64,000 nt of DNA from assembly GCF_056712565.1 (NCBI RefSeq), contig NZ_CM160072.1. One strand, given 5' to 3'. Shown here piece by piece: positions 21,101 to 24,100 of the stretch (positions are counted from its first letter, which is position 1; each line of letters opens with the position of its first letter). Position numbers: made by a program.

Positions 21101-24100
21101 TGCGCGGTGAAGCGACGCCGTTTGTCATGGAGCTGCCGGTCTACCATGTACCACACGTTAAAAGCCTGGTTATCCAGACCTGGCAGCGTCTGAAAGGCTT
21201 CGTTCTGCGTGCTGGTAAAGTGATTATCATTGTCAGCATTTTCCTGAGCGCCTTCAACAGCTTCTCGCTGAGCGGAAAAATCGTCGATAACATCAACGAC
21301 TCGGCGCTGGCTTCCGTCAGCCGGGTGATCACCCCGGTCTTCAAGCCGATTGGCGTACATGAAGATAACTGGCAGGCAACGGTTGGCCTGTTTACAGGTG
21401 CCATGGCGAAAGAAGTGGTGGTGGGTACGCTCAACACCCTCTACACCGCAGAAAATATTCAGGACGAAGAGTTCAATCCGGCGGAATTTAACCTCGGTGA
21501 AGAGCTGTTCAGTGCGGTAGATGAAACCTGGCAGAGCCTGAAAGACACCTTCAGCCTTAGCGTACTGATGAACCCCATTGAAGCCAGCAAAGGCGACGGC
21601 GAAATGGGTACCGGGGCGATGGGCGTGATGGATCAGAAATTCGGTAGCGCAGCTGCCGCATACAGCTACCTGATTTTCGTCCTGCTGTACGTACCGTGCA
21701 TCTCGGTGATGGGGGCTATCGCGCGTGAATCAAGCCGTGGCTGGATGGGCTTCTCCATCCTGTGGGGGCTGAATATTGCTTACTCACTGGCAACATTGTT
21801 CTATCAGGTCGCCAGCTACAGCCAGCATCCAACTTACAGCCTGGTGTGCATTCTGGCAGTTATCCTGTTTAACATCGTGGTTATCGGTCTGCTGCGCCGC
21901 GCGCGTAGCCGGGTAGATGTCGAACTGCTGGCAACGCGCAAATCGGTAAGCAGTTGCTGTGCGGCCAGTACCACTGGCGATTGCCACTAAGGACACGACA
22001 ATGGCTTCGCTCATTCAAGTGCGTGATTTACTGGCATTACGGGGCCGTATGGAAGCGGCCCAGATTAGCCAGACACTGAACACTCCGCAGCCAATGATTA
22101 ACGCCATGCTGAAACAGCTAGAAAGTATGGGAAAAGCAGTGCGGATTCAGGAAGAACCTGACGGCTGTCTTTCCGGCAGTTGTAAAAGCTGCCCGGAAGG
22201 AAAAGCCTGTCTGCACGAATGGTGGGCGTTGCGTTAACCATACTCCATCACCTGTTTTGAAAAGCCCGGTATGCGTTTGCATCCGGGCTTTTTTGCGTGC
22301 GGCTTTCCATAAAAATGCAACCCTTGCAGCGCGACGTAAATTCCTCTGAAAGCGTCTCGCAGGGATGAAAACTCGCTAATGCACAGGTGTGGAGTGGCGC
22401 GTAGAGTCGCGGCATTCAAACAACAGGTGAAGGAACGCCATGAGCAAAAAGCAGAGTTCCACCCCACACGATGCGCTGTTCAAACTCTTTTTACGCCAAC
22501 CGGAGACGGCACGCGATTTTCTTGCGTTTCATTTACCGGCACCCATTCACGCGCTCTGTGATATGAAAACCCTCAAGCTGGAGTCGAGCAGCTTTATTGA
22601 TGACGATCTGCGTGAAAGCTATTCCGACGTGCTGTGGTCGGTGAAAACGGAACAAGGACCAGGATACATCTATTGTCTGATTGAACATCAAAGCACCTCA
22701 AACAAACTGATCGCATTTCGCATGATGCGCTACGCCATTGCCGCAATGCAAAATCACCTGGATGCCGGATACAAAACCTTGCCGATGGTGGTGCCATTGT
22801 TGTTTTACCACGGTATTGAAAGCCCCTATCCCTATTCGCTGTGTTGGCTTGATTGTTTCGCCGATCTCAACCTGGCAAGGCAGCTTTATGCCTCTGCATT
22901 TCCGCTGATTGATGTCACCGTCATGCCTGATGATGAAATCATGCAGCACCGACGTATGGCACTGCTGGAGTTAATTCAAAAACATATTCGTCAACGCGAC
23001 CTGATGGGGCTGGTAGAGCAAATGGCCTGCTTATTAAGTAGTGGATACGCTAATGACAGACAAATCAAAGGGCTGTTTAATTACATCTTGCAAACCGGCG
23101 ATGCGGTACGTTTTAACGATTTTATCGACGGCGTTGCCGAACATTCACCGAAACACAAGGAGAACTTAATGACTATTGCGGAAAGATTGCGGCAGGAAGG
23201 GTTTCAGAAAGGTATACGTACCAACGCCCTAAATATTGCCAAAACCATGCTGGACGCCGGAGTTTCTCTTGAGGACGTTCTGCGATTTACCAGCCTGACG
23301 GTTGAAGACCTTGCTGAAATAAATCATCAATAACGTAAAGGATGGTTTTAATGACAGATGCAGAAAGAGAATATCTTATTATTTACCTGATTGGTTATTT
23401 ATTGGGTCGACGCCTGGAAGCCCTGGATATCGCCAAAAGAATGCTGTAATCCGGAGTCCCTCTTGCGGACATCATGCGTTTTACCGGGGTGTCAGAAGAA
23501 GAGTTGGCTGCGGCGAGTCAGTAAAGTTCTGTCTCGCCATTTCAAAAGCTGTCTACACCCTCTGCTTCAACGCCACCAGCAGGTGATGAAACTCGACCGG
23601 ATGCGAAATAAACGGCGCATGGGCCGCTTTGGCGAAAATGTACGACTCGCTGTGCGGCCAGAGTTTATCCAGCATCGGCACTACTTTGCGCGGCACCAGA
23701 CCATCAAGATAGCCATACAATCGCAAAAACGGCATGGACACGTTTTGCAGCGGCAGACGGAGATCGACCGTTTTGAGGATTTCCAGCCCACCATTGAGCA
23801 CGTCCACCTCCGGCATCGGTAACGCCAGTACGGTTTTCTTCAACGCCCGCGCATCCTGGCGCGCCGTTTCAGTACCCATGGTTTGTAACGCCAGGAACCG
23901 CTCCACTGTACGCTGAAAATCATCACTCAGCTGCTGCTGAAATCCCGCCAGCACGTCCGGTTTTATCCCCGGCCACTCGTCACGAGCACTAAAACAAGGC
24001 GACGACGCCACGGTGACCAGCGCCTGAACACGCTCGGGATGGGTTAACGCAATCTGGCTTGCCACCAGCCCGCCCAGACTCCAGCCTAACCAAATGGCTT

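Follow-up and report, generated by a model that had tools for sequence, protein, structure and literature searches.

A probable pseudogene of a stand-alone RpnS-type antitoxin gene downstream of rpnA in Escherichia coli

The gap between rpnA and bioH in a 64,000-nucleotide (nt) stretch of Escherichia coli chromosome (contig NZ_CM160072.1, RefSeq assembly GCF_056712565.1; hereafter the window) holds a diverged second copy of the 3' end of rpnA. From sequence comparison we judge it probable that this segment, 23334..23524, is the pseudogene of a stand-alone small antitoxin gene of the RpnS type, which we name rpnA_Ss and refer to below as copy 2; copy 1 is the antitoxin-coding segment within rpnA itself. 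Copy 2 would be co-transcribed with rpnA, and in its intact state it would have acted as an extra or alternative antitoxin. In E. coli codon 33 has gone from CAA to TAA by a single C-to-T substitution, which would end translation after the first of three predicted helices, so that the helix 2-3 part of the three-helix domain would never be made, and the copy is presumably functionless today.

Rpn proteins provide the context for this interpretation. RpnL proteins are toxic DNA endonucleases that act in phage defence and are blocked by RpnS, a small protein translated from an internal start of the same rpn gene (Zhong et al. 2023, PNAS; PMC10400941). RpnS is a three-helix dimer whose helix 1 forms the dimer interface and varies in its number of four-residue repeats, each with a single hydrophobic residue beside three that are charged or glycine, and the number of repeats determines specificity (PMC10400941). 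Separate downstream RpnS copies, the rpnSs genes, are known from ypaA (rpnE_Ss), which is translated, and from rpnC_Ss in some strains, and such genes can disappear via deletion or via fusion to the rpn N-terminal domain (PMC10400941). An rpnSs gene is therefore a known kind of element, for which the rpnA locus is not reported in the published main text: Zhong et al. name no downstream copy for rpnA there, while their supplementary information might contain one (PMC10400941).

Homology and anatomy of the segment behind rpnA

The features on which the argument turns are as follows.

23351..23524, + strand: copy 2, 57 codons, the putative pseudogenised stand-alone small gene rpnA_Ss; from homology and intact orthologues
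23334..23350, + strand: 17-nt spacer CGTAAAGGATGGTTTTA, with Shine-Dalgarno-like AAAGGA (23337-23342) 8 nt before the ATG
23447..23449, + strand: premature stop TAA, codon 33 of copy 2; from allele comparison
23369..23404, + strand: three units of four amino acids (aa), EYLI / IYLI / GYLL, in helix 1 of copy 2; from protein alignment
23157..23333, + strand: copy 1, the internal start of rpnA and in-gene RpnA_S, 54 aa; from the sequence, the internal-start concept being that of PMC10400941
22440..23333, + strand: rpnA, long-form allele, 297 aa; open reading frame (ORF), named rpnA in RefSeq genomes that are 100% identical

The segment 23334..23524 is a diverged direct repeat of the final ~190 nt of rpnA. 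A 91-nt direct repeat (23226-23316 / 23420-23510, 73% identity) covers much of the tail, and a second of 21 nt (23166-23186 / 23348-23368, 81%) spans the start-codon region, TTAATGAC..GC.GAAAGA. Aligning 23351..23524 with the rpnA 3' end gives a significant match (blastn of copy 2 against the 64-kb window, E=2.9e-9 over 66 nt at 77%), and the Smith-Waterman score of 57 compares with a mean of 16.2 (sd 2.1, maximum 26) in 500 shuffles. At the protein level, RpnA matches copy 2 in tblastn (E=1.8e-6, 47% over 53 aa), and the product read through the internal stop matches residues 11-49 of PDB 7TH0, the crystal structure of K-12 RpnA_S, at E=1.1e-13. The first-pass annotation had read this segment as the rpnA end duplicated in tandem, degenerate and broken by an internal stop, which formal alignment of both nucleotides and protein bears out; its translation of 23351..23524, namely MTDAEREYLIIYLIGYLLGRRLEALDIAKRML, a stop, SGVPLADIMRFTGVSEEELAAASQ and a final stop, was reproduced exactly. 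No nucleotide similarity was found between copy 2 and other rpn paralogues, with whose 3' ends a comparison had also been proposed, and the 64-kb window contains no other rpn homologue. In 5,426 complete E. coli genomes searched with blastn (word size 11), the segment specific to long-form alleles, which includes the head of copy 2, is confined to the rpnA locus (897 genomes with matches).

Copy 2 sits within the 219 nt that separate rpnA from the convergent bioH. The rpnA stop (23331-23333) is followed by the 17-nt spacer, the ATG of copy 2 at 23351 and, at the far end of the frame, a final TAA at 23522-23524. Within rpnA, the internal start consists of AAGGAG at 23157-62 and an ATG at 23169, and its product begins MTIAER; copy 2 has its own AAAGGA-N8-ATG and begins MTDAER. 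Because it carries its own Shine-Dalgarno-like site and ATG, 17 nt past the rpnA stop, copy 2 represents a whole small-gene unit. The earlier description of a partial duplication of the gene end thus holds as to homology and fails as to extent, since what was copied is not only the 3' end but the entire internal unit of ribosome-binding site (RBS), ATG and three-helix RpnS domain. As for the further suggestion of a remnant of an adjacent paralogue, the sequence shows no trace of a full-length one: there is no nuclease-domain remnant, and the intact orthologue in E. ruysiae is likewise 57 aa. No RefSeq feature is annotated in the rpnA-bioH gap in the related genome records we checked, an annotation gap in which copy 2 should be marked as a pseudogene, and the window sequence has no further ORF between copy 2 and bioH.

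From an alignment of 16 sequences, AlphaFold2 predicts helices at residues 3-33, 38-45 and 49-56 of the read-through product with a predicted local distance difference test (pLDDT) score of 87.8, and the model's best PDB match is again 7TH0 (probability 1.00, target template-modelling (TM) score 0.82). The TAA at codon 33 falls at the end of predicted helix 1, so helices 2 and 3 would be missing from any product of copy 2. Helix 1 of copy 2 exceeds that of K-12 RpnA_S by 8 aa and that of copy 1 by 4 aa, both multiples of four; correspondingly, the conserved IAK motif shifts from residues 19-21 in K-12 RpnA_S to 23-25 in copy 1 and to 27-29 in copy 2. The units EYLI, IYLI and GYLL occupy the position of the variable four-residue repeats in RpnS proteins. 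Compared across P0001-P0010, proteins from our searches, these xYL(I/L) units are mostly hydrophobic, the opposite of the published repeat composition. Protein searches matched the motif nowhere beyond Escherichia rpnA loci, and Tandem Repeats Finder did not detect the units at the DNA level. Identity of the copy 2 protein to an RpnB-type tail is only 37%.

A reading of the segment as something other than a gene remnant, whether chance similarity or a structured RNA, terminator or 3' untranslated element, has next to no probability in our estimate. An imperfect inverted repeat of 22 nt (23318-23339 / 23382-23403, 82% complementary) does flank the RBS and start of copy 2, but the region folds no better than shuffled sequence (z=-0.04, with 94 of 200 shuffles equal or better), the best Rfam match (E=0.68) is to an unrelated long non-coding RNA and is not near threshold, and no terminator-like or promoter-like site was found in the copy 2 region. 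We have accordingly rejected a structured RNA or intrinsic terminator, and with it the RNA role that the first-pass annotation had entertained. Chance is excluded by the shuffles, the blastn and tblastn matches and the match to 7TH0.

Intact orthologues and decay in E. coli

A search of the read-through product against 5.8 billion proteins returned intact relatives of 57 aa (P0005-P0009) that are 86-95% identical, carry a precomputed assignment to Pfam PF27070 (HTH_Rpn_C) and in some cases are named E. ruysiae by NCBI. On E. ruysiae contigs the gene order is feoB-feoC-rpnA-[57 aa]-bioH-gntX-nfuA, with a 17-nt spacer identical to that of the window and an upstream rpnA tail of the same amino-acid sequence. 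Codon 33 is CAA (Q) in E. ruysiae, TAA in the window, and GAA (E) both in K-12 rpnA and in two metagenomic E. coli-like contigs. The same TAA occurs in the window and in 11 of 11 other sampled complete E. coli genomes with the long form, E2348/69 among them, in haplotypes 96-100% identical over the region. When complete E. coli genomes were searched with the intact metagenomic alleles, full-length matches reached at best 95.9% and 91.9% identity; two of the tied top records were read (E2348/69 and SC477), and both carry the TAA.

Copy 2 has accumulated other damage as well. Strain 64A:C has lost the start codon (ATG to AAG) and has a second TAA at codon 16, and frameshifted products are encoded on other contigs (P0011, P0013, P0021, P0031, P0043 and P0044). 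Across eight long-form alleles, none of the 5 variable codons of copy 1 is amino-acid-changing, as against 13 of the 16 in copy 2 (Fisher p=0.003), and the RpnA_S sequence of copy 1 is identical in all sampled long-form alleles of the same repeat number, in E. coli and E. ruysiae alike. Judged by these substitutions, the in-gene antitoxin copy is under purifying selection. A nonsense codon, relaxed constraint relative to copy 1 and independent further lesions in other lineages together mark copy 2 as a decaying gene in E. coli.

Its family membership follows from the features it shares with known rpnSs genes. Copy 2 lies on the same strand directly downstream of an rpn gene, and in the same position in E. 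ruysiae; its RpnS/HTH_Rpn_C three-helix domain is closest to its own upstream gene family (7TH0, the AlphaFold2 model and PF27070); its RBS and start codon are equivalent to the internal start of rpnA; and its helix 1 is offset from that of the in-gene copy by whole units of four residues. The full small-protein ORF is interrupted in the window by the TAA at codon 33. Since E. ruysiae and the two metagenomic contigs retain an intact frame, we class the window copy as an rpnSs-family pseudogene.

Several observations weigh against this conclusion. The assignment of the RpnS domain rests on the precomputed PF27070 of the intact orthologues and on the 7TH0 matches; hmmscan gave no direct domain match, with a local Pfam library that lacks PF27070. 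Most sampled alleles keep the RBS and ATG and share the same TAA across haplotypes 96-100% identical, so that cells might still produce a helix-1 peptide of 32 aa, one that could matter. Amino-acid changes also account for most of the differences among the intact E. ruysiae alleles, and with only ~57 codons relaxed selection is not cleanly separable from diversifying selection.

The second of these points can be developed into an alternative in which the truncated ORF is still functional, its helix-1-only peptide (MTDAEREYLIIYLIGYLLGRRLEALDIAKRML) pairing with the dimerisation helix of RpnA_L or RpnA_S and tuning the balance of toxin and antitoxin. The retained Shine-Dalgarno site and ATG, a stop placed exactly at the predicted end of helix 1 and common to all sampled E. 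coli long-form alleles, and the role of that helix as dimer interface and specificity determinant (PMC10400941) would all be in keeping with such a peptide. However, codons 1-32 vary in amino acid (I/S at 11, G/D at 19, E/G at 23), the start codon is gone and a stop has arisen earlier in the frame in at least one strain (64A:C), and frameshifts precede codon 33 in P0013 and P0043. Moreover, helix 1 of copy 2 is one repeat unit off that of the resident RpnA, and a mismatch of one repeat was enough to abolish inhibition when RpnC was tested (PMC10400941). We regard a functional peptide as very improbable.

If copy 2 is the pseudogene that we propose, rpnA can be added to those rpn genes behind which a separate antitoxin copy lies, or formerly lay, and the locus presents three states of that copy: intact in E. 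ruysiae, stopped by a nonsense codon in ~16% of complete E. coli genomes, and collinear with the working rpnA tail in K-12-type alleles. The locus would also offer a compact, clearly defined setting for studying how the interfaces between Rpn toxins and antitoxins diversify.

Long and short alleles of rpnA and their origin

The window is a segment of E. coli chromosome carrying feoB, feoC, rpnA, bioH, gntX and nfuA, and E. coli FDAARGOS_536 is 100% identical to it over a 461-nt stretch covering the rpnA 3' repeat region. The N-terminal PD-(D/E)XK nuclease domain of rpnA is intact (Pfam Transposase_31, residues 8-209, E=2e-90). The remaining features come from alignment of the window with K-12 EMG2 and Nissle 1917 and from the neighbouring gene.

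23202..23419, + strand: long-form-specific segment, 218 nt; from pairwise and multi-allele alignment against K-12-type alleles
23420..23552, + strand: copy 2 tail and 28-nt spacer to bioH; collinear with, and ~90% identical to, the K-12 rpnA 3' end and its 28-nt spacer
23553..24323, - strand: bioH, convergent neighbour that anchors positional orthology; from ORF and annotation

Window and K-12 are collinear up to the codons for ...RQEG (23201). There the 218 nt of 23202..23419, made up of the copy 1 tail, the 17-nt spacer and the copy 2 head, replace 12 nt of K-12, GAACAATCCAAA (EQSK), and the K-12-type allele is 206 nt shorter (907 nt from rpnA start to bioH end, as against 1113 nt in the window). 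From 23420 onwards copy 2 is collinear with the K-12 rpnA tail (~90%), its stop codon and the 28-nt spacer to bioH, so the crystallised K-12 tail is orthologous in position to copy 2 and not to the rpnA tail of the window. Comparisons of RpnA_S should allow for the K-12 tail and the long-form tail being paralogous copies and not alleles of one segment. The long form has 853 full-length matches in the 5,426 complete E. coli genomes (16%), nearly all others being short forms. In PLSDB the long-form segment matched only two mislabelled chromosomes, and protein searches with either small protein returned only Escherichia rpnA-locus sequences, with no donor identified.

Identity of feoC (21959-22237) to K-12 is 91.6%, a local divergence when set beside rpnA (97%) and the 5' half of bioH (98%). 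In GCA_000407765.1 (contig L090, 202-1457), which has an intact downstream copy, insertion-sequence fragments with HTH_28 and rve_3 matches lie between feoC and rpnA. In Nissle 1917 (L003, 826-1419) rpnA is annotated as an N-terminally truncated pseudogene with the small-protein-coding tail intact; the antitoxin part of an rpn gene may, on this example, outlive the toxin part.

Several natural alleles join parts of the two copies. E. coli O145:NM FWSEC0002 encodes an RpnA of 292 aa whose chimeric tail has the length and junction expected from unequal crossover between copy 1 and copy 2; tails of this type also occur in P0060 and P0064, and in P0012 the crossover lies at IAK. The downstream copies of the metagenomic E. 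coli-like contigs L099 and L100 are intact and have copy-2 heads joined to K-12-type tails. L099 joins ...TTATTGGG to GGAACAATCC..., exactly K-12 plus the 206-nt segment and equivalently, as far as the alignment goes, the state just before a deletion yielding K-12; L100, a contig from polished long-read metagenome data, is a possible artefact. In the metagenomic Rpn proteins P0061, P0066 and P0067 the N- and C-terminal halves match different paralogues, RpnA-like sequence being joined to RpnB-like, and these are either real inter-paralogue recombinants or assembly chimeras. O145:NM FWSEC0002 (NZ_CP031919.1; L004, 1386-2017) also has a pair of genes for a MazE/AbrB-type antitoxin and a PemK/MazF-type toxin inserted right after the rpnA stop, which puts a second toxin-antitoxin system between rpnA and bioH at the same small hotspot.

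Such chimeras raise the question of whether copy 2 is retained for the sake of recombination, as a silent donor or acceptor cassette whose exchange with the in-gene copy, or with the alleles of other strains, diversifies RpnA tails under phage pressure. According to this proposal copy 2 is kept in ~16% of E. coli as a recombination partner, and unequal crossover or gene conversion between the two copies, possibly initiated by the RpnA nuclease, yields new tails and helix-1 lengths; the O145-, P0012- and K-12-type fusions would be its products, and K-12 RpnA itself would be a nuclease domain fused to a former stand-alone antitoxin gene. The chimeras (O145:NM, P0060, P0064, P0012, L099 and L100) are the expected outcome of such a process, and Zhong et al. 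speculate that RpnL itself may initiate recombination events of this kind (PMC10400941). Ordinary homologous recombination between the alleles of different strains, or rare deletions, would nevertheless explain all of them, one (L100) being a possible assembly artefact. There is no sign of a programmed mechanism, with a single cassette and no recombinase sites, and copy 2 has simply been lost in ~84% of genomes. We consider retention as a cassette, and the recombination-partner role that goes with it, unlikely.

Long and short alleles differ by one event, which by alignment would be either a deletion fusing the nuclease domain to copy 2 or a 206-nt insertion. In the latter case, the 206 nt would have supplied rpnA with a new tail, along with the head of another small gene. 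An insertion can be taken further, to a history in which copy 2 was never an independent gene in E. coli and is the original rpnA 3' end, displaced when a foreign segment with a new C-terminal tail entered the gene. C-terminal replacement occurs in polymorphic toxin genes. The copy 2 tail is collinear with the K-12 rpnA tail, and L099 is exactly K-12 plus the insertion. Three observations fit an insertion or introgression: the form present in E. whittamii is the short one; divergence from the K-12 equivalents is ~35% across the inner 206 nt, with outer parts that are K-12-like; and the inner segment is 95-98% identical between E. coli and E. ruysiae, above the flanking feoC and bioH (88-93%). 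On the other side, copy 2 is a whole gene unit with its own RBS, ATG and MT.AER head, E. ruysiae has an intact 57-aa gene in its place, and searches of E. coli genomes, plasmids and the protein database turned up no donor locus. We hold a displaced gene end to be possible, though it is not the history we favour. It concerns origin only, and even if it were true the present object would be a broken stand-alone RpnS gene.

Alternatively, an old tandem duplication would have given rise to the present alleles through later fusions. The tandem is intact in E. ruysiae, the boundaries fit a duplicated unit running from the ribosome-binding site to the stop plus 3 nt, no donor was found elsewhere, and fusion is described as a route of loss by Zhong et al. 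(PMC10400941), for which the long and short alleles would be a concrete natural example. True rpnA orthologues were found in Escherichia only: a contig scan with RpnA yielded E. whittamii alone, all other matches being at most 65% identical and mostly from other genera, and the next RpnA relatives in the protein search were at most 76% identical or RpnB-like. No deeper outgroup was found that would polarise the long and short forms.

Two further observations concern rpnA in the other species. The DNA of its nuclease domain (22440-23160) is 95-97% identical between E. coli and E. ruysiae, as compared with 87-94% for the flanking feoC, the feoC-rpnA spacer and bioH, which suggests, from divergence levels, a recent exchange of rpnA between the two species. 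In E. whittamii Sa2BVA5 (L008, 3160-4520), rpnA is split near codon 215 by an insertion with a 376-aa TnpB-like (IS200/IS605-type) ORF, and downstream of the insertion the K-12-type tail and its junction with bioH are preserved.

Comparison with known systems

The closest counterparts of copy 2 are ypaA (rpnE_Ss) and rpnC_Ss. Like them, it comes directly after an rpn stop in the same orientation, brings its own Shine-Dalgarno site and an ATG beginning MT.AER, and differs from the in-gene copy by whole four-residue units of helix 1. At the K-12 rpnE-ypaA junction the rpnE stop is followed by 12 nt (AAGGAGAGATTA) and the ATG of ypaA, which has one extra four-residue unit relative to its in-gene copy; the spacer behind rpnA in the window is 17 nt. 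Unlike ypaA and rpnC_Ss, copy 2 belongs to rpnA, is nonsense-inactivated in E. coli and has unusual, mostly hydrophobic xYL(I/L) units in helix 1, and the two rpnA copies are far more diverged (about 65-73% nt identity) than rpnE_S and ypaA. In K-12 EMG2 (NZ_CP099588.1; L106, 15744-16841) the Prokaryotic Genome Annotation Pipeline (RefSeq/PGAP) labels ypaA a partial pseudogene and rpnE an 'ISNCY family transposase'. Both labels look outdated, ypaA being a translated small protein (Zhong et al., PMC10400941).

K-12 RpnA_S (7TH0) is the nearest protein of known structure. The copy 2 read-through aligns with it and finds in it the best match of its AlphaFold2 model, and the DNA is collinear with the K-12 tail and bioH spacer; unlike K-12 RpnA_S, copy 2 is located beyond the end of rpnA with a start of its own, differs in its helix-1 head, which is also longer, and is interrupted by TAA. 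The pair of long and short rpnA alleles matches the published loss of rpnSs genes by deletion or fusion (PMC10400941).

Two more distant systems offer partial analogies. Orphan modules of the CdiA-CT and Rhs-CT type likewise place an alternative C-terminal segment just downstream of a gene, share a homologous junction with it and give rise to natural chimeras. Copy 2 differs from these in being of antitoxin type with its own start, not a toxin tip with an immunity gene, in being a single copy and in having no pretoxin junction motif. A displaced orphan C-terminal module in the style of polymorphic toxins was considered and rejected, as copy 2 has its own Shine-Dalgarno site and ATG and no further ORF follows before bioH. 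In Neisseria pilS/pilE, purely as an analogy, a non-expressed partial homologue also adjoins an expressed gene whose variable region could be replaced from it, whereas copy 2 is a single cassette, absent from most strains, with no evidence of programmed or high-frequency conversion.

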